Shown here piece after piece: positions 3,373-42,855 of a DNA stretch of 50,527 nucleotides (its first letter is position 1; every line of letters begins with the position of its first letter). The notes under the pieces were generated by a model that ran no database searches, was not told where the DNA came from, and saw only the letters and a list, made by a program, of their open reading frames with translations. Origin of the DNA: Bacillota bacterium (lineage in GTDB: Bacteria; Bacillota; Halanaerobiia; Halanaerobiales; DATFIM01). The translations under genes and the position numbers were made by a program. The stretch covers positions 1-50,527 of the forward strand of contig JBNJDL010000002.1 in the NCBI GenBank assembly GCA_051744825.1, given 5' to 3'.

Positions 3373-3421
3373 ATATTTGATAATTCATTGTTAAACCCTT
3401 GAATTCTAACCCACAAAAATA

Positions 3422-6308: not shown

Positions 6309-6400
6309 AGTAACAACTCCTTAAAATTCTATTGCTGATGGGCTATCTCATCAGTAACGACTACCCAATATCGTTAGACTGGGAAAACCCCAGTTTCGAA
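6309..6400 (-). ncRNA. hammerhead-ribozyme-like element D (type II topology)
   Basis: AAUUC GAAAC-UGGG-GUUUU-CCCA-GUC^UAACGAU-AUUGGGUA-GUCGUUA-CUGAUGAG-AUAGCCCAUCAG...AAGGAG. Predicted cleavage between 6377 and 6376. Confidence 0.7.
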
Positions 6401-24421: not shown

Positions 24422-26755
24422 ATGGCTAGCAAAAAAACAATCAAAAGAATATCTCGTGAAAAAAATGTAGATATGGGAGTGGCTGAAGCTATGGCTAAAG
24501 CTGACGAAAGAAACAACAATAATAGATATGGCTCTAGAGATGATTCTTCATCTAGAAATAATTCATCAAGTCGTTCATCAAGAGATTCATCAAGACGTTC
24601 ATCAAGAGGTTCATCAAGAGGTTCATCAAGTCGTTCATCAAGAGGTTCATCAAGAAATTCATCATCAAACCGTTCATCAAACCGTTCATCAAGAAATTCA
24701 TCATCAAACCGTTCATCAAACAGTTCATCATCAAATCGGTCTTCATCTAGAAATAATTCTTCTAGTTATGATAGAAAAGACCCTGTATCAGTAGCTAAAC
24801 AACAAATAAAAAATGCTAAAAAAGTTTGGGAAAAAGCTGATGCTGATTATAAATCGGGTAGAATAAGTGAAAAAGAAGCTAAATGGCGAAAAGATAGAGC
24901 TCATAAATCAGCAGAAGAAGCACGTGGGTATTTAGGCGAAAGTGATGCTGATTATACTTTAGTTGATGGTCACAATGATAAAATAGTTACTAATAAAAAT
25001 GATTACGATGATAAAAATACAGGTGAATATGATGTAGAAAAAAGAGAGAAAGGTACTAATGATAAAGTAAGTTATGACTATCGTGGTGAAGATGACGAAG
25101 GTGGAATAGAAGAAATATATAAAAAAGTTGCTGATGTAGATAAAAAACCTGAAAATGTAGTTGATTCAGAAACTGATTTACTAGAAGGTTATAATATGGA
25201 AAATAAATCTAAAGGTAAGTCTGAAGATATAATAAATTCAGAAACTGACTTACTTAAAGGTTATAAAGTTGCTGGTAATAAAAATGTAAAAAATACAGAA
25301 GATATGGAATCTGAAAGAATTTCAGGCGATGAAGATAAAGCATCAGAAGGCGAAAATGATTTTATGTCAAGAGCTAATGAATCATATCAACAAAAAGATA
25401 CTCGTGGCATGAATGATTATGATAAACAAACAATTCAAGAAGCAGGTCAACGATGGGAAAAAGCCGATGCCGATTATAAGGCGGGGAAAATCAGCAAAGA
25501 AGAAGCAAATAAAATAAAAGAAGAAGCTCATTCAGAAGCAGAAGAAATAAGAAATAGATTAGGATTTAGTGGTGGTGAAGATGGTACTCAAACTCAAAGT
25601 ATAGAAGTTGCAGGTGAAGGAGTTTATGAAGGTACTGCTAAAATGAATCCTGAAACTGGTCAAATGGAATTTGAAGGTGAAAACTCACCAATAATAAACG
25701 AATTATTAAATGAATTAGAACAATCTAAATCAGAACAAGAATTTTATCAAGATGCAATCAAAAAAATATCTGAACAAGATTCAGGTTTCAACGAAGAAGA
25801 TGTATTAACTTATGAAGAAGCAGTAGAGCAAGCTGAAAATCAAGTGAATCCAATGTATGAAAAAGGTAGAGAAGAATACATGGAAAAAATGGATAAAGAT
25901 GCTGTAAAACGTGGAGTATTTGGTCAAATACCACAAGAAGCATTGAAAAGACACAAAGCAAGCGAATTAGAAGCACAAAAAGCTAGTGATGTCGCTTCAT
26001 TAGCAACAGAATTAAGAGGTCAATCTTTACAAGAAGCTAGAACAACTGCTCAAATGAAACAGCAAGAAATGAATCAAAAGTTAAATGTTTTAATGTCAGG
26101 TTTACAAGCTAGTGGTAATTCTTCTAAAATGGCTATAAATACATTAAATACAGTAGCTAATATTCAATCTCAACGTGAACAATTAAACATGCAAAAAGAT
26201 TCCCAAGAATTCCAACAAGGAATGGCTGAAGAAGAAATGAATATGGCTAAAGACAACCAAGACTTCAATCAAAAAATGGCTTTATCACAGTTGAATTTAG
26301 AAAAAGAAAAGTTTGCTCAAGATAAAGTTTACAATAATCAGAAAATTGCACAAACATGGGAAAGAATTAAAAACAGCAAGTTAGGTTTAAGACAAGCACA
26401 ACAAAGATTGGGTTTAAACGAAAGAGAAATGGATTTAACTGAAGACCAATTTAAACTAGGTTTATCTGATAAAGCGTGGGAAATGACTAATAAACAAATA
26501 GCCGAATCAGATGATAGTATAAAATTTGATGCTAATTATTACGAAGGGTTAAAAGAAAAAGATACAGATTACAATGAAAGAGAAGGTTTAATGAAGGGCG
26601 ATGATGGTTATATGAATCAAGCTTCTGATTATTTAGAAGAAATTAAAAATCAATCTACTGAAGAATATAGTGAAAGTGAAATCCAAGATATGTATGAAAA
26701 CAATTTGAATATTTTAAATAGCCAGTTAAATCCTTTAGGTGAGTACCAAGATTAG
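24422..26755 (+). CDS. 777-aa protein with an RS-repeat N-terminus and a Q/N-rich coiled-coil C-terminus (internal/ejection-protein candidate)
   Basis: AGGAGG RBS. Has an S/R/N-only tract, a duplicated WEKADADYK[SA]G[RK]IS motif and a long Q-rich helical region. Immediately precedes the giant ORF. Confidence 0.7.
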   Translation: MASKKTIKRISREKNVDMGVAEAMAKADERNNNNRYGSRDDSSSRNNSSSRSSRDSSRRSSRGSSRGSSSRSSRGSSRNSSSNRSSNRSSRNSSSNRSSNSSSSNRSSSRNNSSSYDRKDPVSVAKQQIKNAKKVWEKADADYKSGRISEKEAKWRKDRAHKSAEEARGYLGESDADYTLVDGHNDKIVTNKNDYDDKNTGEYDVEKREKGTNDKVSYDYRGEDDEGGIEEIYKKVADVDKKPENVVDSETDLLEGYNMENKSKGKSEDIINSETDLLKGYKVAGNKNVKNTEDMESERISGDEDKASEGENDFMSRANESYQQKDTRGMNDYDKQTIQEAGQRWEKADADYKAGKISKEEANKIKEEAHSEAEEIRNRLGFSGGEDGTQTQSIEVAGEGVYEGTAKMNPETGQMEFEGENSPIINELLNELEQSKSEQEFYQDAIKKISEQDSGFNEEDVLTYEEAVEQAENQVNPMYEKGREEYMEKMDKDAVKRGVFGQIPQEALKRHKASELEAQKASDVASLATELRGQSLQEARTTAQMKQQEMNQKLNVLMSGLQASGNSSKMAINTLNTVANIQSQREQLNMQKDSQEFQQGMAEEEMNMAKDNQDFNQKMALSQLNLEKEKFAQDKVYNNQKIAQTWERIKNSKLGLRQAQQRLGLNEREMDLTEDQFKLGLSDKAWEMTNKQIAESDDSIKFDANYYEGLKEKDTDYNEREGLMKGDDGYMNQASDYLEEIKNQSTEEYSESEIQDMYENNLNILNSQLNPLGEYQD
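24540..24775 (+). repeat. degenerate tandem repeat (tcatcaaga/ggt-type units) encoding a Ser/Arg/Asn tract
   Basis: Repeated tcatcaagaggt / tcatcaagtcgt / tcatcaaaccgt units. Encodes SSSRNNSSSRSSRDSSRRSSRGSSRGSSSRSSRGSSRNSSSNRSSNRSSRNSSSNRSSNSSSSNRSSSRNNSSS. Confidence 0.9.
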
Positions 26756-26772: not shown

Positions 26773-29700
26773 ATGAAATTTGAAAACTACACTTACAACA
26801 AAACAAAAGATGAAGATGATAAAAACAAAAAATTTAAATATGATAAGAGTAGAGCAAGTAAGTTGTATAACGATATTAGTGTTGACAATGTAAAATTTGA
26901 TAATTTAACATTCAAAGACCAAAAAACAGTTTTGCAATTTTCTGTAGACCAAGGTTTAGATGACTACAATGATTATAAAACTGATGTAATAAAAGATTAT
27001 GGCATTAAAAAGCCGTCTACTAGAACAAACACTACATTTACAGATGAAGGCAAAGTAGATTATGAAACTGAAAGCGTTGAATCAGAAGATAATTCAGGAG
27101 CTTTTTTTGGTAATGAAGTAAGCTATAATAATACACCTGAAGAAAATGCTAGATTGCAATCAGGTGATAAATTAAGAGATGATTTATTTAATTCAGCTAT
27201 TGAAGGTAAAACTAATCAGGGGAAGTTCTATGATTCTAATGATTCCCCTGCATCAAAGCTGAATTTAGATTCTTTATCATCAAAAGAATTATTTAATAAA
27301 GGTATTTATAGCGAAGGTGTAAAGAAAGAACAAGAAGAAATAAAGAATAAAAATCAATCTTTAGTTAAGACTCCTTATGGTGAAAAAACTTATGAAGAAT
27401 TCATGAAAGAAGTTGAAGAAAAGAATGATGTAGCAACTAAATTTAATCAAAAAAGATTAATGAAAAAACCAGTTGAATTAAAAAAATCACAGGTTAATTC
27501 TGAAAATTCAAATGAACCAGCACCTGAACCATTTGATTATATGACAAAAAAAGATTATGCTAACACTTATAAAGGTTTAGACATTGCGTTTAAACCTATT
27601 ATCCCTGCACAAATCCAAGTTTTGGATTCAAGCGGTAAATTGGATAAAGAAGCAACAAAAAAAGCTAGAGAGAGATTTGAAAATGGTGATTCAGTTAAGA
27701 AAACAGTCGGTGGAAGACATATGCATTATAATAAAGATGGTTCTATAGATACAGAAAGAATGAAAGAATCATATAAGACTGAAATGAATTACAAGAAAAA
27801 TGAGTCGCCAGTTGATGTAGATGAGTTATTAGATAAAAGCAGAGATGATTTCATAAATGAAGATAATTCTTTTAGTTTTGGTGCGTTAAAAGAAGATGTA
27901 ATAAGAAAAAGGATTTATAATAAAAGAAGTGAAATTTTAGGTCAAATGGCAGTTAAAGGTTCTAATGATGAATTAAAAAAAGATTTAGCTAAAATTGATT
28001 TGTTTATTGAAAACAATCCTGAAATGCAAGATTCTGAAAAAACTAAAGAATTTAGAAAAGAACATAAAATTTTAGGGTTCTTAGACAAAGGCATATCAGG
28101 AGTAACTGAACAAATTACACTTTGGACTAATAATTTAGGTGAAAAAGCAATGTTTACTGGATTAGGAGCTTTAACAGGAAATCCTCAAGCTGGTTATATT
28201 GCAGGTTCATCAAAAGATATGTTTATGATTGAAACAGGTAATGCATATGAAGAAGCTAGAAAAGCTGGAGTACCACATGAAATAGCTAGGAAAGAAGCTA
28301 TGAAGGCAGGGGTTATTAATGCTGGTATAGAATCAGGTCAAATGGCTTTATTTTTAGCAACGTCAGGATTGTCTAAAATAGGTTTATCAGGAGCTTCTAA
28401 AGTAGGAGCGGGTACTGTAGATAAATTATTTGGTAAATTTGCTTCTAAAGTAGCAAGTAAAACTGGTAGTCAATTAGCTGGGAAAGTAACTGAAATTGGT
28501 ACTAGATGGGGTGCTGGTGCTGTAGGTGAAATGACACAAGAGGGTTTACAAGCGGTAATGAGTAAGAAATATGTTAATGATTCAGTTAATTTAGCAGTAG
28601 AACGTGGATTTTTATCTAAAAATGAATTAAGAGAATATGATTTTGATGATTATTCAAAAGTATTTTCAGATGAATTTAAAGCTGTTGCACCTACTATGAT
28701 AATGTTAGGTGGTATTGGTGTAGGCACAGGTCAAGTTGTAGAAGCTACTAAAAACCATTTTGAAAAGCAAGATAAAAGAGCAAGACAGTTGTATGTTGCA
28801 AAATCAATGGACGAATTAAAATTTCAATCAAAGAAAATTGCAGAAAATCCTGAACATTTTGTAACTGGTGACAAGAAACAAAAAATAATGAATGATGTTA
28901 ATAATTATATTGAGTTTGCTAAAAAATATAAAGAAGATTTTTCAGAAGTCGCTGAATCCGACTTAGGTTTTGATGCAGATTTTGATGAAGTTTTAGATTT
29001 GTTAAACAACTATAAAAAGTATTTAAATGACTTAGAGCAAAATACAAAAGATACTTTAACTAATTCTATTGATTTTGAATTAGAAGAAGGAACTATAGAA
29101 AAAGCAAAAGAAGAATATTCAAAACTTGAAAAGGTATATAAAAATATTGGAATGTCAGAAGAAGATTTAATTGAAGTTAGAAATAAAATAGAAAATAAAG
29201 AAATTGAAAATGAAAAGTTTGTCAATAATATGGATAGTAAAAATTTAGGGAAAATAAAAACTCAAAGAAATAAAAACAATTTAAATATTGATGAACTTGA
29301 AAAAGAAATAATTTCTATTGATGAAAAAATAGAAAATACTGAATCAAAAAAACAAATTGAAGAATTAGAAGAACAAAAATCTTTAAAAGTATCAGAAATG
29401 GAAAATCTGATTAATGACAATGCTATAATTACACAAGAAATAGAAAACAGAATAGAAAGTAATGAAACAGGTAATACTGAAGAACAAGAAAGTTATCAAT
29501 CTCTATATGAAAAAACTAATGAAAATATTGAAAATAAAAATATTAGAATTGAACAAAACGAAATTGAACAAAACGAAATTGAACAAAATAAAATTGAACC
29601 GTTATCAGCCGAAGAATTAAAAAATAAAACAATACCATCTGATAGAGATTTTGAAAGTTTAGGCAGTAGAAAAATAAAATCTATGCAAAATGAATTTGAA

Positions 29701-32700
29701 GAATTAAAACCTTTCATACAAGAGCAAGCTAGAATTACTCAAGGTGAGTTTCAAGCTGGAGTTAAAGGCAAAAGATATCCTATATTAATGGAAGATAGTA
29801 CTAATAAGGCTGAAATAATAGGTTATGATGGTAATCCTAGAATAGCGTCAAAAACTGTAGATAGAATATTAAACAACACTAATGCAACTTACGCAAAAAT
29901 AAATGATGCTTTTAATAATATAATTGAAGGCAATGATAGAGCTAATTTAGCAACTGCTAAAAGAATAGAAGTTATACTAAATGATATATTAACAGAAGGA
30001 TATGAAACTTTTGAGGGTATTGAAATACCGCCTAACGAAGAATATATTCAAACTAAAAGAAGCTTAGGTTTGTCAGAAAATGATTTTGAAATTGGTGAAA
30101 CAGAAGTAGAATCACAAAATGTTGACCAATCTCAAACTAAATTAGAATCAAGTGAGGTTACTAATGAAAATAATCAAACTGAAAATGTGCAAACTGATGG
30201 AAAACAATCGGAGTTTGAACAAGAAAGCGAAGTTAGTCAACCTGAAAGTGTTCAAATGGAAGAAGTTGAAAAAGCAGTCGAATCTAAATCTCAAGCTAAA
30301 CCTAAGCGAGATGAACAAAAACGAGCAGACATAGGCAAAAGATTTTATCAAAAAATGAATACACCTGTAAATTTAGGCAATAAAATTTCTGAAATAAGAA
30401 ATAGACTTATGGAAAAAGGGGTAAGCGAACAAGAAATTGATTTTATATTAGATAATTATTTTGAAGTTATGCAACAATTACAAGATGCAGGAATGGAAGT
30501 TAATTTTGATTTAGAAATAGTAGAATCTATAAGTGATTTAATAGACCAAGACATTTTAAAAGAACATGGTTTAGAAGAAGCAAACAATATTATGATTGAC
30601 GGAGCTACATTAGTAGATTCTGATATTCATAAAAATTCAATAAAAACATCAATGGAAATTGTTAGTTTGCCTAAAAAACCTATAACTGAAACATTTATCC
30701 ATGAGCTATCAGAGATGTATGCTGAAATTTGGCGACAAAATGCATCTGAAAGTTTTGAATCAATTTCTCAAGAATTGATTGATAATGATTTGGCTACTGA
30801 AGATAACGTTCAAGAGTTTATAGCAGATTTTTTAACTGATAATGCACTTGAAAAGAAAATGGATTTAAATGATGAAAATTCAGCTATCGATTCTGTAGTA
30901 GGCGAATATGTTGCTAAGTTTAAAAATTGGGCTAGTAATATAATAAAAAGATTATCTAATTTAAGAAACACAAAAGAGCGAGTACCTGACTTGTTAAATA
31001 AGCAAGCAGAAATGTTTTCTAATGGGAATTGGAAAGAAGCAATAGAAATGTACCAAAGTGCTGAAAAAACTTATGAGAATTCATATTCTGACGTATTACA
31101 GCAAGAAATGGTTAATGATTTGGTTAGTGGTTCTTTAAATCAAACTAAAATGGTTAACAAGTATGGTATAGGTGAAAATCAAGCACAAATATTACTAGAA
31201 AAAATGAATCAATTAGGAAATGAAGAAGAAATAGTTAGTATATTTGATAAAGAAAAACCTAATTTAAGTGATGTAAAAGAAAAAACTTTAGAACCTAATC
31301 AGATAACAAATGAACAAGCTAAAGTTTTAAAAAGAAGTTTAAAAAGAGCTGAAGAAAAAGGTTATTCATTTAATGGTATTGCTAAAAACAATAAAGGTAC
31401 AGTTTATTATAGTAAAACTTTAAATGATAGTGCAAATAGTCTTGCTAATGGTAAAACTTTGGTAACAATGATTGGGAAATCAGGCAAAGTAGCTTCTGAT
31501 GTTAGTAAAGAAGTATTTGACAGTTTGGAAAAATTAGATACAGTTATGGACGAAGATGCTAACACTATATATGATTCTTCTGATTTTGAAGATTCAAATA
31601 ATAAATCGATTGAACAATCTGATGAAGCTGTATCTGATTATGAGATTGAAGAATATAAAGGAAAACCAGTACCAAAGGCTATAGAAAATATAAATTATAA
31701 ATTCAAGAAAGCCGAAGATTATACTAAAAGTGAATATCAAGAAATGTTTAATGTACCTGATAAAAAAATTGATAAAATGTTTGAAATTTTTCAGATTGTT
31801 GAACAGGAAATGTATTCTTTAACTGAAGATGTAAGAAGTCAAGAAAAATATCAAAAAGAATTATCTGATGGTACTAAAGAGAACATGAAAGATTATGAAC
31901 TAGAAGAAAAATCGTCTGTAGATATTCCTTATGCTGACAACTTACTTGAAGAAAAAAATATTGAATTGAATGATGCTAAAAATGAAATAAGAGCAACTAG
32001 ATTTAATGAAGTTGCAAAAGATATTATTGATACAATGGTGGAATATGAACAAAAAGAACCAATTGAGGTAGCAGATGAAGTAGTAGAAGAATCAAATAAA
32101 GTAGAAATCAACAGAAAAGAAAAATATAAACTAGACGGAAAAATAAAAAAACAATATAGTACTGAAAAAATTGATGGTAAGAGAGTTAGAAGTTATATAA
32201 TTAATGCTACTACTCAAGAAGATATTGATAGAATAGCAGATTATTTTGGTAATGAGAAAAAATATGAAGTTTTAACAGAAGGTATGGATACAGAAGGCGA
32301 TTATGAAAATAGTTTTGTAGAAGTATTCATTTATGATGATGAAAATACTGTAACTCAAGCTAGAGATTTATTCAATAGAGATTACAGAAAGTTAAAACAA
32401 AATGATTTTGAAGAAGTAGAAAATGCTAAAACTGAAAGTACTAATGATAAAAATGATAAACTAGAAACTTATGAAAATCATATTATCCCTGAACCTATTT
32501 TAGGTGCTGGAGTATTCGATAATAAAGATTATCATGAATATACAATTGATGAATATGCTGAAAAATTCAATATTCCTGAAGATAAAAAGGAAGAAGTATA
32601 TAAAATCTATAAAAAAACTGAAAGAAAAATAAATAGCGATTTATATGAAAAAGTTTATAATAAAGATAAATATTATAAAAAATCAAATGGTAAAAGAGTA

Positions 32701-35700
32701 TCACTCACAGATAAAGAATTAAGAGAAATGAAACCTATAGATGTAAAACATGCTACTAGTTTATTTAATGAACGAGAGATAGAAATTAATAATGTTAAGG
32801 AAAATGCTAGAAAGAACGAATGGAATAAAATTGCTAAAGAAGTTATAGATACTACTATAGATACTGAAAAAAATAGAGCAGAACTAGAAAAAGCTTTTGA
32901 TTATGATATTAAAGATGCAGATTTATCAGATGAAGCTTTTAAAAAAAGATATGGTATAACTAAAAAAGAAGCTTTAGATGGTGAATATTACAATGGTGAT
33001 GGTTCTTTAGAAGAAAAATATTTAACAGAAGGCGTTAATAGTCACATTAAAAATCCTTTAAAATTCAAAAAGAATATGGAAGCTGTATATAATAAAATGA
33101 CAGCCAAAAAGAAACTTGCTGATAATCATTTAGTTGTAAAAGCTAAGATAAGTCATTTAGATGAATCTTTAATAGTGGGAACAATAAGGAAAAAAAGCGG
33201 TGTTATTTTAACAACAGAAGAAGAATTTGATAGAAGCACAGAAACTAATATTCAAAATAGAAGTATAAAAGACGCAGTAAACCATAATGTTATGAGAATG
33301 AAGTCTAACTTTAAAGACAAATATATGAAAGACTTGAAAGCGTTAGATTCTTCAATAGAATTTAATACTGGTGGTGGCTTAACGGAACACAATGTAGCAA
33401 ATTTAAACTTTGAATATAATAATGACATGAGCGAAGGTACAATAACTTTAAATTTAGATGAAAAACTTAAAGAAAGCATTTCTGAAAAAGAACAACAAGA
33501 AATGATTGAAGAAGAAATATCTAAATTAGAGAAGCAATTAAATAAAGAAAATTTGGAATATGAATTACAGCCAAGTGAAGAAAGTTTTAAAAGAACTATC
33601 AAATTTGAAATAAAAGAAGATGTTAATAAATACAATGAAGAAATGAAGAAAAAAATTGATGATTTCTTTAGTGGGAAAATGACAGAAGATACTAGATTTT
33701 CAGTATCTGAAAGCTTTGAAAAAAGAAAATTTGATATTGATGAGCAAGGCAATTTATTATTTGTTCATGGAATATATAAAGATAAATTAAAAAAAGCTTT
33801 AGATTTAGGTGCTTTACCAATGCCTTCTTTGGCTATGATTGATGATAAAACTTCATATACTGGATTTGGTGAAATTTCACTTATAGGAAGTAAAGAGTTT
33901 TTCAATCCTAACAGAGCTTCAAATAATTTATTTGATTCTGATGTTTATTCACCAAGATTCCCAAGAACAAAAAGATTTTTATATCAAGAAAAAGCAAGAG
34001 AATGGTTAAATGATTTTATTTCTGAATATAAAAAGTTTGATGTTGAAGAAATTGAAGATTCAAGAGCAAGAAATTATTCAGACCCTGAAAGTTTAGCACA
34101 TGCTTTATATCGTTCACCAGCTATAAAAATAAAATATGCTAGTGAAGTATTAGGCGAAGAATATGATTATTTAACTGACAAAAAAGTTATAGAAACAACT
34201 AAGTATATTTCTAAATTGTTTAATAAGAATTTGAAAGATGATTTTATTCAATTTTTAAAAAATGAAACTATAATTGATGAAAAATATATTGATTTAATAA
34301 AAGAAAAAGGAATTAGAAAAGCGACTAAAGAACTTTCTTCTGAAATTACTGCTGATGGAGCAATTAATTCTAAAAAGAAAATGTTTGAATACTTTAAAGA
34401 AAATGTTGATTCTGAAATAACCTTTGAAGATTTTAAAGAAGAAGTTGGTTTTTATAAATCTGAATCAAAAGATGCTTTCAGTTTGATTTTTAAAGATAAT
34501 TTGTCTGAAATTAATGAAGAATTTTCAAATCATTATATTGATAAACAAATTTTTCCGTCAGGAGAATATTCTTTAACTAAAAAGTATAAAAAATGGTTAT
34601 CGAATAAAATTAAATCGGCAGGATTGTTTAGCGAACCTTATTTCACTGAATGGAATCCTGACCAAATGGAAGAAATAAAATATAAAGTAACACCTGAAAA
34701 CGCACTTAAACTTATGAAAAAGAAAAGTTTACAAGCTGGAGAAGGTAATTTAGTTAGTGGATTTAATGAGTTTAAAAGTGCTTTTGCAAAAAAATTAACA
34801 TCTTTCAAAGAAGCTAGAAAAAGAGCTGAAACAAACTTAGCTGATTTTGAAGAAAAAAAGTATAAAGAATATACAGATTCATTAAATAGCAAAATATTAG
34901 AATTTGTTAAAGATTATGATTTATCTACTGGAGGTTCTTCATTTGTAGATGCAGATGCTTTTATAGATACAGTTATAGAGTATAAAGAAAGCACTTTGCA
35001 CGAAATGCGTAAATATAGTGAAAAGTTAGATGCTAATTTTGAAGAAGCTAGTAAAAGATTTAATGAACTAATAACTTTGGCACAGACATTACCAGTTAAT
35101 TATTTTGAATTAAAACCTAATAGAATTGTAGGCTTTGATGAATTTAATTATGCTGTAGTACCTAATAAATTAGATGCTAATTTAAAAGAAAAATTATCTG
35201 ATTTAGGATATAATTTAATTCAATATGATGGTACTCCAAAAGGTTATAGAAAAGCATTAGCTGAAACAAAAGGTGACCCAAAAGTTAGATTTTCAGTAGA
35301 AAACATCGATGAGTCAGAAACGTTGACAGATGAGTCTTTAAAGGTAATAGAAGAAATTAAAGGTTCAGAAAAAGTTAACGACTATAAAAGAAGTGCTAAA
35401 AAAATAAAACAAAATGCAGATATAATCAGAAAAAACTTCGACCCAGTAGATAGTAGTGAAAGCTTTAGAATTGAAGAACTATTAAATAAAATAGATTACC
35501 ATATTAATTTCACTTTAAATGAAACAAACAATTATATAGATTTTATGGAAGATGGATTTGATGCTTTAGAAAAACATTTTAAAGAATTAAAAGAATATGG
35601 TGTGAATTTAGTAGATGATGGTTGGGTAAGAGTAGGACACCCAGTAAACAAGGCATTAAGACGTGAATATGAAACATTGAAAAGATTAACTAAAAAGCAA

Positions 35701-38700
35701 AAGAATAATGAAGGATATTTTCAAGATAGAATTAATGAAATATATCAACTTTTTAGTAAACACGGGCTTGAAAACCTTGATGAAATTGGTAATTTTATAG
35801 AAAGTTTACCAATGACAAAAAGAACTATATTATATGACAATGTTAGATTCTCAACGAATAAAGTAAGTGAAAATAGTATTGGTTATAATAAAGAATTGCC
35901 TAAATCTTACAATAGAGTGGCTGATAATTTTGATAAAAATGAAGTTTTAAATGTACATTATAACAATTTAAAAAATACTAATTTGCTTTTAGAATTGAAT
36001 AGAACTAAAGCAAGAGATGAATACGGCAATCCATTGTTATTGTTTCACGGAAGCACACATAAAATTAATTTTCCTTCACCTAATAAATCGACACCGCGTG
36101 GTTTTTTAGGCAAAAGTTTTTATACTAGCACAAAAGTTGATGATGTAATGACAAATTATTTATTAGATGGTTCTGATTTAAAACAAAGAAAAGGAAGATT
36201 AGAAGAAAAATTATATGAAATGCAAGATTATGAATTACTTGAAAAAGCAGATGCACATAACATTGATTATGACGAAATTTCACCTGATATACCAAACATA
36301 GTAGAAAAAATAGTAGATAAAGAATTGATTGGCGAAGGGGAATATGTTTATCCAGTTTATTTAGATATCAAAAATCCTTTCGTGATTGATGAAAACAGTA
36401 ATGATAGAACTATAAAAATTAGATATGATGAATATACTATGGAAATGTATGAAATAATACAAGAAAAAGAAAAAAGAATTAAAAAATTAGGTAGAATGGT
36501 AGCTGGAATGAATCCTAGTGAGAGGAATGAGTCATTTTTAGAAAATGCTAAAAAAGAAATAATAGAATTAGAAGAAGAACTTGAAATGGATATTGAAGAT
36601 TTTCAAGATGAAGCTATGTATTCGGAACTAGAAGGAAACCTTGTTGATATAGTTGAAGGTATTGCTTCATTCTTAAAATATGATTCTGATATAGAAGATT
36701 TCATTAATCAATCAGAAAATATAGAAGCAGAAATATATGAAGAATTAGATGCATATTTAAATGATTCAAATCCTTATTTAGAATTCACTCCATACGAAGT
36801 GTTTGAAGCAATAAAGAATGTATTAATAGATAAAGAGTTTATGTTTAATGATTTTCATTTAGATGATAATTTTTACAATCCAATAGGCGAAATTATAAGA
36901 CGTGGATTAAAAAGTGCTGGTTTTGATGGTGTAATATTAAAGAATGCTGAAGATAGATTTAATGGTTATGGTTTATCAGTACCTTATGGAACAGACCATT
37001 ATATGGCATTTAACTCTGACCAAATTTATTTCTTTGATGATTATGATTTAGAACAAAAAGAAAGAAATCCATATAAAAATGTTGATTGGGAAGATTATCA
37101 AATTGAAAATTCAGAAACTTGGGAAGAAAAAACTAAAAATAATAAAACAGTTAAACGTTATATGCAAGAACATGATGTTGTTGAAATGATATCTGTTGAT
37201 TGGTTAGATAAATTTAAAGAATTCAGAAGAAATCAAAAAGGTCTTTCAACTGCTGAAAATGCTGAACAACTTGTAAAATCTATTTCTGAAGAAGGTATTA
37301 AAGAACCTATAATAATAGATTATAATGCTAAATCTCAAAAAGCACATATTGCAGAAGGTAACAATCGGTTGATGATAGCACAAAAGATTGGTGCTGAAAA
37401 AGTGCCAGTTAGAGTCATGAATTCAAAATATGAATCTAATGTAATCAATTACAAGGTGCAAAATCCTAAAATAGATTCAAATACTAATCAAGCAGATTTT
37501 AAATTAACTGATATAGTGCCAAAATGGGAATTGGAAAACAATATTGAGCAAAACTACAATCTAAGGTTCTCGATGGAAAATATAAAAGATTTTAGAACTG
37601 AATTAACTGGTTCATTTAAAGGTCAAAATAATTTTTCTAAAATAGCTGTAGTAGATGATATTAAAATGGGAGAAATAGAATATTCTACATTAGAGAATGA
37701 TATAGATAATAAAATTTATATTAAAATGATTGAAGTACCAAAAGAGTTTAGAAGAAGGAAAATTGCACATCAAATGCTTTATGATTTGCAAGAAAACAAT
37801 CCTGATAAAACAATTGACTTTGGTTATTTTACAAGCGATGGTTCTAAAATGATAAATGCTATCGCAGATAAGGTGGAGAGTAAATACTATGATGATTTTG
37901 AAAGATTAGAGGAAATTAATAAAAAATTAGAAAGGTTAGAAAATGCTGATTATGATTCTCTATCTGAAGAAGAAAAAGAGTCGTGGAATCCTTTAAATGA
38001 TGAGCAAATTGATTTAGAAAATAAATTAAGAAACAAAAACAAGTATAATTACAAAATTAAACCTGTTGAAAATAATAATTTGGTTCAGCCAACATCAAAA
38101 AAATGGGATAAAGGAGCGACATACGAAGAAGTCAAAAAACAATTCCCTGATGTTAATGGTGAAGTGGAAGAAGGTAAAGAGGCTCATTCTACACAAATCA
38201 AGACAACTTTAGGAACTTATCAAAAAGTTATTGATGAATTTGTTGAAAAAAATAACAAAGTTTTAGATTTTAGTGCTGGTTTAGGTTATGGCACAAGATA
38301 TGGTAAATTTAAAAACTTTGGTATTGAATTTGACATTTCTTCAAAACAAGTAACTTTAGATAATGTACAAAGTAAATATTCTAAAATAATAACATCACAT
38401 GGCTATAAGAAGAAGAAAGATTCTTATGTTAAAGATATAAGTAATTTAGAAGAATCGGAATACATGTCTGATATTGATTCAATGATAAAAAAAATAAAAG
38501 GTTTATTCCCTGAAGATGCTGAAATGTTATTCGAAGCTAGCGAACCATTTGCAGAAGAATATTACAATCCAGAGTATACTGATTCAAAAGAAATAGCTTC
38601 AAATAAATATGATTTAGTTATTAATAATGCCGTATTAAATGTAGTGACTCAAGATGTAAGAGATGATATAGTTGCTGAAATAGGTAGAGTTTTAAAACCT

Positions 38701-41700
38701 GACGGCAAAGCAATAATAATGGCTCGTGGTAGAAGTGGCATTGTAAATTCTAAGACAGGCAAGAAAATTGAAGGTGGAAATAAATATGCTAGATATATGC
38801 CAAATAAAAAATCATATCAAAAAGGTTTTTCAAAAGGCGAATTATTTGAATATGTAAAAGATGTATTGAACCAAAAATCAGAAGGCGTTGATTTTGAAGT
38901 AGAAAAAATGCGTAAATCTAATTCAGGTACAGCATCAACTAAAAATGGCGTTATAATAACTAAGAAATCTAAGATGTTTGATGTTAGATTTTCAGCAGAA
39001 GAAAATAATATTCCTACAAGACCGCCAAGATTGCCTGATGACGCATTTTTTGAAATGGAAGAAGATTTATATGATGCTAAGATGAAACAATGGGAAAAGT
39101 ACCAAAATGACTTCAGAAAGCATACTAAAAAAATACTTGACCAAGATAATGTGTTTAGTATAAGAAAAGGTGATGATTTTGCGATTATACACCCAAGTAC
39201 CAAAGGTAGTAATTATCAAATTAGTTATTTTGATAAAGACGGCGTTTGGGGCGATACACAACATGAAACATTTGAACAAGTTATAAATGATTTATTTGAG
39301 CATAACTTTGATGATATAGAAAATTTAGAAAGAATGTCAGATGTTAGATTTTCAACTAATCAAGAAAAAGTAGGAAAAAAAGTAGGGTATACATCTTATG
39401 TTCATAAATCAGCAATAGATGCATTGAATAATAATTTAAAAAAATTACATGATAATGCAGTACAACATATACCAAAAGAATTTGGTGATTATGAAATAGT
39501 TAAAATTAATAAAAAGACAGGTTTTGTTAGTTTTATAAAATCACCTAATTGGGATACGGCACATGAACCTACAGTAGGGGATTCTATTAAAATTAAAAAT
39601 GATGGCGAATATAGTATAAGACATGCATCTAAAAAGAATCCTAAAATTTATCATCATAAACATTTATTTGTTAAAGAAAATTATGAAGGTTTTGATATTC
39701 AAGAGTCACGATTAAGAAGTCAAATTTGGAATAATTTAGATGGTATAAATAAACGAAAAATAGGTTCGAAAAAATATTGGGAAGAAACTGTATTACCTAA
39801 GATTAATAAGGAAATACAAAATCTTAAAGAAAATGATGAATATAATAAAAGAACAGATTTAACAGAAAATGTTGAAAAATGGTTTGAAAATCATGTGAGA
39901 TTTTCTACTGAAAATGTTGAAAAATCAAAACTTGATGAAAGAATAAGAGAATTAAAAGTTAAAATTGAGCAACTGGAAAAAGATGTAGAGAAAGACCCTA
40001 ATTTAAGATATGAGTTAAGAAATGCAAGAATTGAATATTTTGGTTTAGGCGTTGAAAAAATAAGTAGAAATACTGAATATGCTTTTGAAAAAGTAGTGAA
40101 TTCGTGGTTTCAATCAAAAGATTTAAAACAATTTAGAAGTATGGTTAAAATCAAAAAACTTCAAAATAGAATCAAAAGTATAACTGGAGAAAAAAGTAAG
40201 TTAGGCAATATAATTTATGGTAAAGAAGCTAAAAAACTAGATAGTGCAATACAAATTTATATTGATTTGTTAGGCAATACTGATGAAATGATTGAAAAAT
40301 ATTATGATAAATTAACTGATGAGCAAAAAGAAATTGTTGATTTAAGTCAAGATTTACCTGACGAAGCAAAGCAAATAGCTGATGAAGTACTAGCAATGTC
40401 AGAGGAAATAGGACAACGTGGTTTAAGTGCAGGAGTGCTTAAAAATCTTAGAGAAAATCATTTATCTAGATTTTGGTTAGATGATAAAGAAAGAGATAAA
40501 AGTAATGTATCTCATGCTAAATTCAGTACAAAAACTAGTCTTGCTAAAATGAGAACTTTAGAATCTATATTAGAAGGCTGGGCTAATAATAAAGAATTAG
40601 CTATGAAAGGTGCAACAACTGCGTTAGATGCACAACTTGATTCTTTAGTTAAAGCTATAGAAGATGATAGATTAATAAATACAATGTTAAACACTAAAGG
40701 TTTTGAAGATGAAAAATTGCTTATAAATTATAAAGCTGATGGGTATGTTCCAATAAATCACCCAATGTTTAAAAAATGGTTTCCAGTTAATGGTAATTAT
40801 GAGAAAAAAGATTTTAAAATTGATGATGCTAGAGAAGGTCAATTAGTAGAAGTAGATGGGAGAAAAGGCAGATTAGGTAAATTTGATAAGAAGCAAATAA
40901 AAGGACAATTTAATATTGATGGTGAAGAATCTAAGAAAATAATACCTATTATATTTGAAGAAAAAGGCGGAACAATTGTTGAAAAACATAATGTAAGCGA
41001 TATAGAAAAAATATCAGCTTCAGGTAAAGATTTCTTCATAGATGATAGCGACACAATTTGGGCTAACAAAACTTTATATATGCCTGAAAAACAAGCCAAA
41101 AGAATGAACAAAATTTTAGGAAAATCTACATTATACGATGTTGAATTCTTAGGCACAAAACCTTTTGATTGGTTTACAACAGTTAATGGCATGTTAAAGT
41201 CTTGGATACTTCAAACTTCATTTTTTCATCATTTAGCATTCATGAGAAGTTATTATTTAGGTACTAACAATAAAAAAACATCTGAATTGAACTTCTATAA
41301 AGCATATAAAAACGGAATGGATAAAATTGAGAATTTAAATGAAGATATTGAATTGTTAGTTAAAAATGGAATGACTTTAGGTAGATTACAAGATTGGGAA
41401 GAAAGAGTATTTAATCAAGAACAAGGTCGCATAGGCAAGTTATTAGATAAAACTAAAGCGACTAAAGTAATTAAGAATAAAATGTTGGAATATAGAGAAA
41501 GACAAGCTAATTTCTTATTTAAACAGTTTGGTGCTGGTCTTAAAGCACAAGCTGGTTTAATAGAATTAAGACATATGCGAAATAAATACAAAAAAGAGTT
41601 AGCTAATGGAACGGTCACTGAAGATAAAATTGCTGAAACAGTAGGTAATTTATTAAACAATGACTTTGGTGGATTGCATTTGCAAAGATTAGAGCGTAAT

Positions 41701-42855
41701 CAAACATTTCAACATGTAATGAGATTATTCTTATTAGCTCCCGATTGGACTGAATCTAATGTAAGAACAATGGTAGAAATGTTTAGTAAAGATAAAATGA
41801 AAGCGGATATTTCAAGAAGATTTTGGCGTAATGCATTTGCAAAAGGCGTTGGATTTACAGGGCTTATGAATTTGATGATGGCTCAAATAGGTAAGGAAGA
41901 CGATGAAGAAACTTTAGAAAAGTTTTTCAAAATGTATAGAAATGCTTGGGAAGCAAGCAATTTGCGTTGGACTGCTGTAAATATAACACCTTTATATGAA
42001 CTTGTAGCTAATAATCCTACTAACGAACAATATTTCTTTAGCTTAATAGGTCACTTTAAAGATGTGCTTAAATTTACTGCACACCCAGTAAGAAGTTTGA
42101 ATCATAAAGGTAGTACAATATTTAGAATTGGGCAAGAAATATTGACAGGTGAAGATTGGCGTGGTTGGGGATTCTCGACTACAGGTGATTATTTAGGTCT
42201 TAGCAAAAATTCAGATTTAGGTAAAGCGTTAGGTGCAACAACTTATGATGGTAAGCATAAAGGTGAAACTACACATTATGGTGGTGGTGGCTCAATAGGT
42301 TATGAAAATTTATTACCATTTATTGTTCACCAAATTATAAGTAACCAACCTATACAACTTCAAAATTTAATTGAATATCAATCAGGTCAATTAACTGGTA
42401 TAGAAGCAGTTGCTAATAGTGCTGGTCTAGATGTCAGAAGGACTTATGTACCGCCTGATAAAGCTAGATTTGATGAAAAATGGGATAAATTATATCAACA
42501 ATATAAAACAAATAGAGATACCGATGTAAAACCTAAAGGATACTCTGAAGCTTTTTATGATAGAATTTCTAGAATGAGAAGTCAAATTAGAGAAAACGAC
42601 AAAATGATAGAGCAATATACTGAACCTAAAGAAATTGATGCATTGAAACAAAAGATAAGAGCTATAGAAAATTCCAACAGAAGTGATGAATATAAAGATA
42701 AAATGATTGAATTTAATGAGAGAAAAATAGAAAGAATTGAAAAGAACCATGAGGAAAAAGAAGAAATCTATAAAAAAAGAATAGAAAAACTTCAAGAAAA
42801 AAATCAAAAACTATATGAAAAAGCTAATGAACTGTTGGAAAATAAAGGTTATTAA
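26773..42855 (+). CDS. giant polyvalent (multi-effector) protein, 5,360 aa
   Basis: Single uninterrupted ORF with a GGAAAGGGTG RBS, followed by a strong terminator. Contains several recognisable enzymatic modules, listed as sub-features below. Confidence 0.9.
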   Translation: MKFENYTYNKTKDEDDKNKKFKYDKSRASKLYNDISVDNVKFDNLTFKDQKTVLQFSVDQGLDDYNDYKTDVIKDYGIKKPSTRTNTTFTDEGKVDYETESVESEDNSGAFFGNEVSYNNTPEENARLQSGDKLRDDLFNSAIEGKTNQGKFYDSNDSPASKLNLDSLSSKELFNKGIYSEGVKKEQEEIKNKNQSLVKTPYGEKTYEEFMKEVEEKNDVATKFNQKRLMKKPVELKKSQVNSENSNEPAPEPFDYMTKKDYANTYKGLDIAFKPIIPAQIQVLDSSGKLDKEATKKARERFENGDSVKKTVGGRHMHYNKDGSIDTERMKESYKTEMNYKKNESPVDVDELLDKSRDDFINEDNSFSFGALKEDVIRKRIYNKRSEILGQMAVKGSNDELKKDLAKIDLFIENNPEMQDSEKTKEFRKEHKILGFLDKGISGVTEQITLWTNNLGEKAMFTGLGALTGNPQAGYIAGSSKDMFMIETGNAYEEARKAGVPHEIARKEAMKAGVINAGIESGQMALFLATSGLSKIGLSGASKVGAGTVDKLFGKFASKVASKTGSQLAGKVTEIGTRWGAGAVGEMTQEGLQAVMSKKYVNDSVNLAVERGFLSKNELREYDFDDYSKVFSDEFKAVAPTMIMLGGIGVGTGQVVEATKNHFEKQDKRARQLYVAKSMDELKFQSKKIAENPEHFVTGDKKQKIMNDVNNYIEFAKKYKEDFSEVAESDLGFDADFDEVLDLLNNYKKYLNDLEQNTKDTLTNSIDFELEEGTIEKAKEEYSKLEKVYKNIGMSEEDLIEVRNKIENKEIENEKFVNNMDSKNLGKIKTQRNKNNLNIDELEKEIISIDEKIENTESKKQIEELEEQKSLKVSEMENLINDNAIITQEIENRIESNETGNTEEQESYQSLYEKTNENIENKNIRIEQNEIEQNEIEQNKIEPLSAEELKNKTIPSDRDFESLGSRKIKSMQNEFEELKPFIQEQARITQGEFQAGVKGKRYPILMEDSTNKAEIIGYDGNPRIASKTVDRILNNTNATYAKINDAFNNIIEGNDRANLATAKRIEVILNDILTEGYETFEGIEIPPNEEYIQTKRSLGLSENDFEIGETEVESQNVDQSQTKLESSEVTNENNQTENVQTDGKQSEFEQESEVSQPESVQMEEVEKAVESKSQAKPKRDEQKRADIGKRFYQKMNTPVNLGNKISEIRNRLMEKGVSEQEIDFILDNYFEVMQQLQDAGMEVNFDLEIVESISDLIDQDILKEHGLEEANNIMIDGATLVDSDIHKNSIKTSMEIVSLPKKPITETFIHELSEMYAEIWRQNASESFESISQELIDNDLATEDNVQEFIADFLTDNALEKKMDLNDENSAIDSVVGEYVAKFKNWASNIIKRLSNLRNTKERVPDLLNKQAEMFSNGNWKEAIEMYQSAEKTYENSYSDVLQQEMVNDLVSGSLNQTKMVNKYGIGENQAQILLEKMNQLGNEEEIVSIFDKEKPNLSDVKEKTLEPNQITNEQAKVLKRSLKRAEEKGYSFNGIAKNNKGTVYYSKTLNDSANSLANGKTLVTMIGKSGKVASDVSKEVFDSLEKLDTVMDEDANTIYDSSDFEDSNNKSIEQSDEAVSDYEIEEYKGKPVPKAIENINYKFKKAEDYTKSEYQEMFNVPDKKIDKMFEIFQIVEQEMYSLTEDVRSQEKYQKELSDGTKENMKDYELEEKSSVDIPYADNLLEEKNIELNDAKNEIRATRFNEVAKDIIDTMVEYEQKEPIEVADEVVEESNKVEINRKEKYKLDGKIKKQYSTEKIDGKRVRSYIINATTQEDIDRIADYFGNEKKYEVLTEGMDTEGDYENSFVEVFIYDDENTVTQARDLFNRDYRKLKQNDFEEVENAKTESTNDKNDKLETYENHIIPEPILGAGVFDNKDYHEYTIDEYAEKFNIPEDKKEEVYKIYKKTERKINSDLYEKVYNKDKYYKKSNGKRVSLTDKELREMKPIDVKHATSLFNEREIEINNVKENARKNEWNKIAKEVIDTTIDTEKNRAELEKAFDYDIKDADLSDEAFKKRYGITKKEALDGEYYNGDGSLEEKYLTEGVNSHIKNPLKFKKNMEAVYNKMTAKKKLADNHLVVKAKISHLDESLIVGTIRKKSGVILTTEEEFDRSTETNIQNRSIKDAVNHNVMRMKSNFKDKYMKDLKALDSSIEFNTGGGLTEHNVANLNFEYNNDMSEGTITLNLDEKLKESISEKEQQEMIEEEISKLEKQLNKENLEYELQPSEESFKRTIKFEIKEDVNKYNEEMKKKIDDFFSGKMTEDTRFSVSESFEKRKFDIDEQGNLLFVHGIYKDKLKKALDLGALPMPSLAMIDDKTSYTGFGEISLIGSKEFFNPNRASNNLFDSDVYSPRFPRTKRFLYQEKAREWLNDFISEYKKFDVEEIEDSRARNYSDPESLAHALYRSPAIKIKYASEVLGEEYDYLTDKKVIETTKYISKLFNKNLKDDFIQFLKNETIIDEKYIDLIKEKGIRKATKELSSEITADGAINSKKKMFEYFKENVDSEITFEDFKEEVGFYKSESKDAFSLIFKDNLSEINEEFSNHYIDKQIFPSGEYSLTKKYKKWLSNKIKSAGLFSEPYFTEWNPDQMEEIKYKVTPENALKLMKKKSLQAGEGNLVSGFNEFKSAFAKKLTSFKEARKRAETNLADFEEKKYKEYTDSLNSKILEFVKDYDLSTGGSSFVDADAFIDTVIEYKESTLHEMRKYSEKLDANFEEASKRFNELITLAQTLPVNYFELKPNRIVGFDEFNYAVVPNKLDANLKEKLSDLGYNLIQYDGTPKGYRKALAETKGDPKVRFSVENIDESETLTDESLKVIEEIKGSEKVNDYKRSAKKIKQNADIIRKNFDPVDSSESFRIEELLNKIDYHINFTLNETNNYIDFMEDGFDALEKHFKELKEYGVNLVDDGWVRVGHPVNKALRREYETLKRLTKKQKNNEGYFQDRINEIYQLFSKHGLENLDEIGNFIESLPMTKRTILYDNVRFSTNKVSENSIGYNKELPKSYNRVADNFDKNEVLNVHYNNLKNTNLLLELNRTKARDEYGNPLLLFHGSTHKINFPSPNKSTPRGFLGKSFYTSTKVDDVMTNYLLDGSDLKQRKGRLEEKLYEMQDYELLEKADAHNIDYDEISPDIPNIVEKIVDKELIGEGEYVYPVYLDIKNPFVIDENSNDRTIKIRYDEYTMEMYEIIQEKEKRIKKLGRMVAGMNPSERNESFLENAKKEIIELEEELEMDIEDFQDEAMYSELEGNLVDIVEGIASFLKYDSDIEDFINQSENIEAEIYEELDAYLNDSNPYLEFTPYEVFEAIKNVLIDKEFMFNDFHLDDNFYNPIGEIIRRGLKSAGFDGVILKNAEDRFNGYGLSVPYGTDHYMAFNSDQIYFFDDYDLEQKERNPYKNVDWEDYQIENSETWEEKTKNNKTVKRYMQEHDVVEMISVDWLDKFKEFRRNQKGLSTAENAEQLVKSISEEGIKEPIIIDYNAKSQKAHIAEGNNRLMIAQKIGAEKVPVRVMNSKYESNVINYKVQNPKIDSNTNQADFKLTDIVPKWELENNIEQNYNLRFSMENIKDFRTELTGSFKGQNNFSKIAVVDDIKMGEIEYSTLENDIDNKIYIKMIEVPKEFRRRKIAHQMLYDLQENNPDKTIDFGYFTSDGSKMINAIADKVESKYYDDFERLEEINKKLERLENADYDSLSEEEKESWNPLNDEQIDLENKLRNKNKYNYKIKPVENNNLVQPTSKKWDKGATYEEVKKQFPDVNGEVEEGKEAHSTQIKTTLGTYQKVIDEFVEKNNKVLDFSAGLGYGTRYGKFKNFGIEFDISSKQVTLDNVQSKYSKIITSHGYKKKKDSYVKDISNLEESEYMSDIDSMIKKIKGLFPEDAEMLFEASEPFAEEYYNPEYTDSKEIASNKYDLVINNAVLNVVTQDVRDDIVAEIGRVLKPDGKAIIMARGRSGIVNSKTGKKIEGGNKYARYMPNKKSYQKGFSKGELFEYVKDVLNQKSEGVDFEVEKMRKSNSGTASTKNGVIITKKSKMFDVRFSAEENNIPTRPPRLPDDAFFEMEEDLYDAKMKQWEKYQNDFRKHTKKILDQDNVFSIRKGDDFAIIHPSTKGSNYQISYFDKDGVWGDTQHETFEQVINDLFEHNFDDIENLERMSDVRFSTNQEKVGKKVGYTSYVHKSAIDALNNNLKKLHDNAVQHIPKEFGDYEIVKINKKTGFVSFIKSPNWDTAHEPTVGDSIKIKNDGEYSIRHASKKNPKIYHHKHLFVKENYEGFDIQESRLRSQIWNNLDGINKRKIGSKKYWEETVLPKINKEIQNLKENDEYNKRTDLTENVEKWFENHVRFSTENVEKSKLDERIRELKVKIEQLEKDVEKDPNLRYELRNARIEYFGLGVEKISRNTEYAFEKVVNSWFQSKDLKQFRSMVKIKKLQNRIKSITGEKSKLGNIIYGKEAKKLDSAIQIYIDLLGNTDEMIEKYYDKLTDEQKEIVDLSQDLPDEAKQIADEVLAMSEEIGQRGLSAGVLKNLRENHLSRFWLDDKERDKSNVSHAKFSTKTSLAKMRTLESILEGWANNKELAMKGATTALDAQLDSLVKAIEDDRLINTMLNTKGFEDEKLLINYKADGYVPINHPMFKKWFPVNGNYEKKDFKIDDAREGQLVEVDGRKGRLGKFDKKQIKGQFNIDGEESKKIIPIIFEEKGGTIVEKHNVSDIEKISASGKDFFIDDSDTIWANKTLYMPEKQAKRMNKILGKSTLYDVEFLGTKPFDWFTTVNGMLKSWILQTSFFHHLAFMRSYYLGTNNKKTSELNFYKAYKNGMDKIENLNEDIELLVKNGMTLGRLQDWEERVFNQEQGRIGKLLDKTKATKVIKNKMLEYRERQANFLFKQFGAGLKAQAGLIELRHMRNKYKKELANGTVTEDKIAETVGNLLNNDFGGLHLQRLERNQTFQHVMRLFLLAPDWTESNVRTMVEMFSKDKMKADISRRFWRNAFAKGVGFTGLMNLMMAQIGKEDDEETLEKFFKMYRNAWEASNLRWTAVNITPLYELVANNPTNEQYFFSLIGHFKDVLKFTAHPVRSLNHKGSTIFRIGQEILTGEDWRGWGFSTTGDYLGLSKNSDLGKALGATTYDGKHKGETTHYGGGGSIGYENLLPFIVHQIISNQPIQLQNLIEYQSGQLTGIEAVANSAGLDVRRTYVPPDKARFDEKWDKLYQQYKTNRDTDVKPKGYSEAFYDRISRMRSQIRENDKMIEQYTEPKEIDALKQKIRAIENSNRSDEYKDKMIEFNERKIERIEKNHEEKEEIYKKRIEKLQEKNQKLYEKANELLENKGY
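28090..28750 (+). other. Gly/Ala-rich hydrophobic region of the giant protein (possible membrane-interacting segment)
   Basis: MFTGLGALTGNPQAGYIAGSS..., AGVINAGIESGQMALFLATSGLSKIGLSGASKVGAG..., WGAGAVGEM..., APTMIMLGGIGVGTG. Confidence 0.4.
29548..29598 (+). repeat. 15-nt in-frame tandem repeat (IEQNE x3)
   Basis: attgaacaaaacgaa x2, then attgaacaaaataaa, then attgaa. Confidence 0.9.
35990..37030 (+). other. tentative ADP-ribosyltransferase-like module (H-Y type) with a large insert
   Basis: NPLLLFHGSTH (His 3092) and GKSFYTSTKVDD (Tyr 3117). The distal AGFDGVILKNA...GTDHYMAFNSDQIYF resembles the terminal strand of ART modules from polyvalent proteins, but I see no clear catalytic Glu. Confidence 0.35.
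37180..37425 (+). other. ParB/sulfiredoxin-like (ParB N-terminal nuclease-type) module
   Basis: ISVDWLDKF...LVKSISEEGIKEPIIIDYNAKSQKAHIAEGNNRLMIAQKIGAEKVPVRV fits the pattern l..SI...G...Pi.v......y.i..G.hR..A....G....pv.v. Confidence 0.55.
37600..37870 (+). other. possible GNAT-fold acetyltransferase-like module
   Basis: IYIKMIEVPKEFRRRKIAHQMLYDL resembles GNAT motif A (V.pe.RrkGia..Ll), with K where the Gly is usually found. Confidence 0.3.
38170..38740 (+). other. class I SAM-dependent methyltransferase module
   Basis: Motif I KVLDFSAGLGYGT, then YDLVINNAVLNVV and IGRVLKPDGKAIIMARG, with a long insert after motif I. Confidence 0.65.
41160..42360 (+). other. C-terminal hydrophobic/aromatic module of the giant protein
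   Basis: WFTTVNGMLKSWILQTSFFHHLAFMRSYYLG, LFLLAPDWTESNV, GVGFTGLMNLMMAQIG, WRGWGFSTTGDYLG and GGGGSIGYENLLPFIVHQIISNQP. Confidence 0.4.

Follow-up and report, generated by a model that had tools for sequence, protein, structure and literature searches.

The 50.5-kb contig JBNJDL010000002.1 (50,527 nucleotides), analysed here in its entirety and referred to as the window, encodes on its plus strand a giant open reading frame (ORF; 26773..42855) whose 5,360-residue product, P0001, brings together four enzyme-type domains in a single segment (residues 3025-4071; window 35845-38985, wholly inside the ORF in frame +1): an ART-PolyVal ADP-ribosyltransferase (ART) domain, a ParB/sulfiredoxin (Srx)-like domain, a small GNAT acetyltransferase-like domain and a class I S-adenosylmethionine (SAM)-dependent methyltransferase. 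We consider it probable, at roughly 70%, that these domains are effectors carried inside the capsid and ejected together with the DNA. The architecture of P0001, the position of its gene and the literature on polyvalent proteins together point to packaged, ejected effectors that would come into play as infection begins. The window, which has been binned into a 2.47-Mb metagenome-assembled genome (MAG) and has a G+C content of 26-33%, carries genes for a terminase, a portal and a major head protein upstream of the giant ORF, and is therefore the genome, or a large piece of the genome, of an uncultured, low-GC tailed phage. The giant gene lies inside the block of phage structural genes and is co-oriented with the late genes. 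The initial annotation, which was made from the sequence alone, had singled out the segment through nine quoted peptides, all of which were recovered in frame +1 of this ORF at the places it gave. The segment starts at the third R-F-S motif of P0001 (residue 3025) and ends just before the fifth (residue 4072), and a further R-F-S motif at residue 3598 divides it into module A (residues 3025-3597, 35845..37563, between the motifs at 35845 and 37564), comprising the ART and ParB-like domains, and module B (residues 3598-4071, 37564..38985, between the motifs at 37564 and 38986), comprising the GNAT-like domain, a probable coiled-coil linker and the methyltransferase.

Judged by its domain content, P0001 is a polyvalent protein, with PBECR5, ART, ParB, GNAT and methyltransferase domains in one ORF among phage structural genes. 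A role as injected effectors has been proposed for polyvalent proteins (PMC5512222, PMC9503650), and ART-PolyVal, ParB-superfamily, GNAT and PBECR domains are among their listed components (Iyer, Burroughs, Anand, de Souza and Aravind, 2017, J Bacteriol, PMC5512222). P0001 resembles the phage-type members of that class in combining many unrelated effector domains, in being a giant polypeptide, whose 5,360 residues put it close to the top of the size range of the class, and in its late/structural gene location. It differs in the type of its methyltransferase, in that no MPTase or other peptidase was detected and in a ParB domain that matches the general ParB_N model, with no match to DdrB-ParB. 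The reading of the segment as a polyvalent enzymatic cluster held in its essentials, with four amendments: the ART triad is His-Tyr-Asp, motif A of the GNAT is defective, the methyltransferase is not the adenine methylase of the literature, and the enzymatic block is wider than 35845-38985, since a PBECR5 (barnase/EndoU/colicin-like) RNase-like module (33694-35286; Pfam E 4.5e-19) directly precedes the segment. Besides PBECR5, this module matches phrog_22978, a 3,513-position family without an assigned function. A word-indexed homologue search with the whole protein identified P0002 as the sole giant relative of P0001, and such searches with module A and with the GNAT piece returned no relatives; relatives were instead gathered by an all-against-all representative search and pattern scans. 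P0001 and P0002 have in common a Gly/Ala-rich hydrophobic N-terminal region (window 28156-28578, P0001 residues 462-602; P0002 residues 485-599; 28% identity, E 2e-5).

The ART-PolyVal domain (residues ~3078-3425, 36004..37047) scored 39.4 bits against Pfam PF18760 when isolated (gathering score 31.2, E 1.3e-9), and the full 573-residue module scored 30.9 bits, slightly below that threshold. In the described ART-PolyVal family the catalytic triad consists of a His in strand 1, a Tyr in strand 2 and an Asp in strand 5 (Iyer et al. 2017, PMC5512222), and P0001 offers H3092 (36046-36048), Y3117 (36121-36123) and D3385 (36925-36927). The first two account for the H-Y pattern noticed earlier in LLLFHGSTH (residue 3088) and GKSFYTSTK (residue 3113). 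The accompanying remark that a catalytic Glu was not evident is accurate, but it describes no defect, because the family uses His-Tyr-Asp and no Glu is expected; the third member of the triad is D3385 in the GFDGV strand. An AlphaFold2 model of the domain (mean predicted local distance difference test (pLDDT) 73, predicted template-modelling score (pTM) 0.66) placed H3092 in strand 3090-94, Y3117 in strand 3116-19 and D3385 directly before strand 3386-89, within a seven-strand core that is consistent with the ART fold, although no solved ART was matched. Among the BFVD predicted viral structures, the top matches were named ART-PolyVal-like (E 1.2e-11, TM 0.47). Aligning the domain with 11 ARTs of viral contigs showed H3092, G3093, D3385 and G3386 to be invariant; the Tyr column held Tyr or, in a few relatives, Phe.

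The distal strand that had been noted ~290 residues downstream (GFDGVILKNA at residue 3383, 291 residues past the His, followed by HYMAFNSDQIYF at residue 3409) is thus the second half that the domain ordinarily has, separated from the first by an enlarged insertion. Every relative has a helical insertion between the ART halves, ~200 residues being the family norm; the His-to-Asp spacing is 293 residues in P0001 as against 197-240 in 12 relatives, making the insertion 55-95 residues longer. In the secondary structure of the model, this large helical piece (residues ~3213-3369, 36409..36879) falls between strand 4 and the helix before strand 5. Profile score, triad placing and the split by a helical insertion all ally the domain with ART-PolyVal (PF18760), a His-Tyr-Asp clade related to Tox-ART-HYD2, and membership of the family is well supported; the enzymology of the family itself rests on prediction, and ADP-ribosyl transfer from NAD+ is accordingly a predicted activity of the P0001 domain. 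ART-PolyVal relatives usually end in a C-terminal QIKS...DIRYS tail, whereas in P0001 the ART is linked directly to the ParB-like domain. The same ART and ParB order was found elsewhere only in P0126, a stand-alone 452-residue cluster (ART-PolyVal 73 bits), and a metagenome scan gave three ART loci, none of which (0/3) had a ParB domain. We do not claim a conserved ART-to-methyltransferase pair: an ART end lay at most 80 residues upstream of the methyltransferase in 4 of 89 large relatives, as judged with custom hidden Markov models that are probably insensitive.

The ParB/Srx-like domain occupies residues ~3465-3560 (37165..37452) and bears out the ParB/Srx-type fold proposed in the initial annotation from the peptide EGIKEPIIIDYN (residue 3507). 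Isolated residues 3465-3566 reached 30.4 bits against Pfam ParB_N (PF02195; gathering score 26.3, E 4.1e-7) and matched TIGR00180 (E 6.7e-7). Ten PHROG families matched the region, most of them ParB families (E 2e-10 to 1e-5); the best match was to phrog_498, in which phage proteins fuse a ParB part, the part matched here, to a DNA methylase (E 2.4e-10). A profile of the ParB subtype matched structures of ParB, Noc, Spo0J, KorB, SbnI and Srx (best E 5e-6), and R3532, the conserved Arg of the EGNNR box (37354-37368), was invariant in the alignment of the subtype. The fold signature and the conserved Arg are features that P0001 shares with phrog_498, with the ParB of PADLOC MTase_II and with the CTPase domains of ParB, Noc and KorB. 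It differs from all of these in its EGNNR box, in a neighbouring methyltransferase of another class and in its extent: the domain is ~95 residues long, no helix-turn-helix or dimerisation domain follows and the full GERR(x)R box is absent. Since EGNNR stands in place of the GERR of CTPase ParBs, CTPase activity is unlikely, and on these sequence features the domain is a ParB/Srx fold rather than a partition ParB or CTPase clamp. The same EGN[HN]R subtype occurs with the same methyltransferase family, in either order, in small proteins (P0071, 424 residues; P0093, 520 residues; more weakly in P0003 and P0005), suggesting that the two domains are functionally connected.

The third domain, a small RimI-like GNAT (residues ~3610-3706, 37600..37890), was recognizable at the level of its family. 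On its own, the P0001 copy gave weak matches (E 0.001-0.02; 19.4 bits against a gathering score of 30). It is 33-36% identical to ~90-residue domains in phage contigs, conjugative elements and Clostridia genomes, one of which, at locus L002, passes Pfam Acetyltransf_1, _7 and _10. A family profile that included the P0001 copy matched 60 solved GNATs and essentially nothing else in the PDB, the best being RibT (E 3.5e-8), with archaeal Nat and aminoglycoside acetyltransferases at ~1e-5. The suggestion of a GNAT motif A, based on IEVPKEFRRRKIAHQMLYDL (residue 3653), was therefore right as to the family and wrong in one detail, as the motif-A Gly is a Lys. Motif A reads RR[QRK]G[IL][AG] in the aligned relatives, with Gly in all of them, and RRRKIA (37750-37767) in P0001 only, K3663 replacing the conserved Gly. 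A sequencing error is an unlikely source of this Lys, its codon (AAA) being two changes from any Gly codon. All other family-conserved positions are kept. The GNAT homology thus holds at family level, and the substitution makes catalytic activity of the P0001 copy doubtful. The domain fits the 'second', RimI-like GNAT family of polyvalent proteins (PMC5512222), and its relatives include copies upstream of an adenine-methylase/helicase module in Clostridia; at L002 and L018/L024 the GNAT domain precedes an adenine-methylase module in a large polyvalent-type protein. Joint alignments of the GNAT and methyltransferase made with MAFFT were discarded, because fragments were laid onto the wrong domain or methyltransferase N-terminal tails spilled onto the GNAT helix.

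A charged linker, probably a coiled-coil judging from its sequence and from alignment with relatives (37891..38052), connects the GNAT to the methyltransferase (residues 3761-4066, 38053..38970), which by profile, residue conservation and model is a complete class I SAM-dependent enzyme. It scored 26.6 bits against Methyltransf_11 (gathering score 21.2). Its motif I, LDFSAGLGYG, lies within VLDFSAGLGYGT (residue 3830, 38260-38295), and the other peptides quoted for it, YDLVINNAVLNVV and LKPDGKAIIMARG, start at residues 3946 and 3974. Further motifs are TQI (38188-38202), E3924-P3925 (38542-38547), VLNVV (38632-38646) and YQKGF (38815-38829). All 24 of the 24 family-invariant positions are kept, including TQ, LD-x3-G-x-G-x-G, EP, P, Y, VLNV, R, QKGF and EL-x2-Y. 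The AlphaFold2 model (pLDDT 83, pTM 0.86) is a seven-stranded Rossmann fold in which the invariant E3924-P3925 pair, with its acidic residue, follows strand 2 (3919-23). This is the usual site of SAM ribose binding in class I methyltransferases. A Foldseek search of the PDB returned 203 methyltransferase chains at E<0.001, led by NNMT, NRMT2, METTL6 and GNMT, with TM scores of only 0.3-0.4; by sequence, the nearest solved enzymes were phosphoethanolamine N-methyltransferases (E ~1e-3). With these results, the computational checks that the initial annotation had proposed came out in its favour, all four resemblances going far past what chance would give: profile searches supported the ART, ParB, GNAT (through the family profile) and methyltransferase assignments, and mapping of catalytic residues onto the ART and methyltransferase models put the triad in or at strands and E3924 after strand 2.

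The unusually long insert that had been remarked on after motif I proved to be private to P0001. It comprises ~69 residues (3849-3918, 38317..38526) between helix A and strand 2, is modelled as a small alpha/beta subdomain (pLDDT 62-80) and was present in 0 of 149 representative relatives and absent from P0002; relatives align as two pieces around residues ~3855-3922. Solved Methyltransf_11/23-type class I enzymes such as NNMT, NRMT2, METTL6 and GNMT share with the P0001 domain the seven-stranded fold, motif I, the acidic residue after strand 2 and an N-terminal helical lid. Unlike them, the family has invariant motifs of its own (TQI, EPFP, VLNV-P and YQKGF), to which P0001 adds the private subdomain. 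An NNMT-like function, for which the structural similarity is confined to TM 0.3-0.4, was kept only as a speculative lead.

This methyltransferase family is abundant. It dominated the representative search (1,285 matches, 380 cluster representatives at E<1e-10) and was found at 376 IMG/VR loci, and Pfam covers it only through the generic Methyltransf_23 and Methyltransf_11 models. Its carriers are mostly proteins of 2,000-4,500 residues, with some stand-alone forms of 190-600 residues; Gly-rich segments comparable to the one near the N terminus of P0001 precede short stand-alone forms (for example, P0102 and P0116). The methylase described for polyvalent proteins is an EcoKI/TaqI-like adenine methylase accompanied by LPD36 and a helicase (PMC5512222). 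In P0001, the methyltransferase has no DNA-methylase motif IV, either (D/N/S)PP(Y/F/W) or PCQ, and matched none of the PADLOC restriction-modification methylases, and Pfam scans of the whole protein revealed no helicase or LPD36 partner. By these sequence comparisons, it is not the DarB-like DNA-adenine methylase of the polyvalent literature and belongs to a separate, abundant, un-named family. The same family occurs in two cultured phages, in Roseobacter phage CRP-3 gp36 (L128), between the portal and coat (capsid) genes, and in Mycobacterium phage Myrna gp97 (L129), adjoining the major head protein; both gene positions support a head-associated location. Myrna gp97 is annotated as a 'tape measure' despite this position, which looks like a mis-annotation.

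The R-F-S motifs that bound the modules are more frequent than composition would predict. P0001 holds seven [VTL]-R-F-S motifs, as against 0.56 expected, and the broader R-[FY]-S motif occurs 169 times in 150 relatives, as against 72 expected, and is thus not private to P0001. The junction consensus, ..(N)P(T)..D-I-R-Y-S-L.., was found before and after the ART and methyltransferase modules of relatives. Junction motifs were located at window 33694-39906, in relatives P0005, P0010, P0047, P0083, P0142 and P0150 and at loci L004-L017. Relatives have an R-Y-S junction at the GNAT-methyltransferase linker, which in P0001 has degenerated to YNYKIKPV, and the ART-to-ParB junction of P0001 (QIYFFDD) likewise has no R-[FY]-S motif. 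Cleavage at the R-F-S junctions is possible. The methyltransferase is followed by two small R-F-S-bounded modules (window 38986-39897), which match phrog_16075 (unknown function, E 7e-18) and no Pfam family.

In the infection scheme that we favour, P0001 would be synthesized late and loaded into the capsid, from which it would be ejected into the cell along with the DNA. Its domains would take effect right at the outset of infection, whether still tethered or freed by cutting at the R-F-S junctions. With NAD+ as its substrate, the ART would ADP-ribosylate some macromolecule of the host; the ParB-like domain might bind or nick DNA, or bind a nucleotide; the GNAT may acetylate a host protein or may now be a non-catalytic binding module; and the methyltransferase would modify a target other than a DNA base, such as a protein, an RNA or a small molecule. 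Several observations weigh against this scheme. All that is known of the phage is this MAG-binned contig, and we infer both the presence of P0001 in the virion and its ejection. The ART model found no meaningful Foldseek match in the PDB (best E 0.58) and the ART family profile matched no PDB sequence, failures that we attribute to the helical insertions dominating the model and to a family that has no solved member. The methyltransferase family likewise has no solved structure, and no biochemical assay of either family was found in the literature. Pfam scans of the whole protein detected no peptidase domain able to cut the R-F-S junctions. The EGNNR box and the motif-A Lys of the GNAT also count on this side, as do the small ParB-methyltransferase fusions, which, on a minority reading, keep a nucleic-acid or nucleotide substrate open.

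These fusions also bear on the alternative that P0001 protects the phage genome in cis, as a DarB-like anti-restriction protein would (DarB providing the precedent; PMC5512222), with the ParB-like domain holding the incoming DNA and the methyltransferase, perhaps together with the ART, modifying it against host restriction. The pairing of the ParB subtype with the methyltransferase family in such small proteins argues for this, and so does the resemblance of the ParB region to the N-terminal ParB of phage ParB-DNA-methylase fusions, both in phrog_498 and in the N terminus of PADLOC MTase_II (E 1.7e-5). The enzyme itself fits poorly: it lacks motif IV of the amino- and C5-DNA methylases and any match to a restriction-modification methylase, the solved enzymes closest to it in fold or sequence are N-methyltransferases of small molecules, proteins and RNA, and P0001 has neither an SNF2 helicase nor an LPD36 partner. 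We regard cis-protection as unlikely.

Somewhat more doubtful still is the idea that P0001 is a very large internal virion protein in which one or more modules are catalytically dead relics, kept as scaffold, as spacers or for binding. The GNAT would be the prime candidate, with RRRKIA where relatives have a Gly and with no score of its own above the Pfam gathering threshold; the incomplete ParB box and the enlarged insertions of both the ART and the methyltransferase point the same way. However, the ART and methyltransferase keep every family-invariant residue, the GNAT keeps its other conserved positions and the models place both insertions outside the catalytic strands. The alternative to which we give least credence, and which seems very improbable, is that P0001 is not ejected at all and either acts late in the producing cell, where it might modify components of the phage or of the host as particles assemble, or is a purely structural internal protein. 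Packaging and ejection are steps that we infer, and the co-orientation of the gene with the late genes suits this alternative. The position and size of P0001 nevertheless fit polyvalent and internal virion proteins, its Gly-rich hydrophobic N-terminal region is common to its giant relative, and relatives of its methyltransferase occur in head-module proteins of cultured phages, all of which favour ejected effectors.

A bolder extension of the ejected-effector reading, which we regard as a long shot, is that the methyltransferase family, defined by its TQI, EPFP, VLNV-P and YQKGF motifs, constitutes a widespread undescribed class of capsid-delivered effectors whose target, rather than a DNA base, would be a protein of the host, an RNA or a small molecule derived from NAD (nicotinamide, for instance), and that R-F-S cleavage would release ART-ParB and GNAT-methyltransferase as two bifunctional units. 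The idea of a nicotinamide-type substrate comes from the nearest solved folds, which are nicotinamide N-methyltransferases, and from the company that the domain keeps with NAD+-consuming ARTs.

P0001 belongs to a known class and is a large but otherwise ordinary example of the described polyvalent proteins, not a new system. The analysis maps, residue by residue, four candidate effector domains of a polyvalent protein that ranks among the largest, and singles out H3092, Y3117, D3385, R3532, K3663, D3831 and E3924 for mutation. Its most useful by-product is the abundant methyltransferase family, which has hundreds of clusters and no specific name and is testable in CRP-3 gp36 and Myrna gp97; this uncharacterised family is the only part that might repay experiments.

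Two repeats were observed elsewhere in the window. A degenerate 12-nucleotide tandem repeat in 13 copies (window 24550-24742) lies within the 777-residue ORF preceding the giant gene. An intergenic element of ~98 nucleotides occurs four times (window 4726-4823, 5351-5448, 5787-5884 and 6295-6392), each copy directly upstream of one of a run of consecutive small minus-strand ORFs. Every copy comprises a ribosome-binding site and two hairpin-like pieces, one of them a hairpin with the conserved loop TACCCAAT, the stems of which vary between copies in a compensatory-looking manner; these elements may represent a repeated set of early promoters or of 5' leaders.

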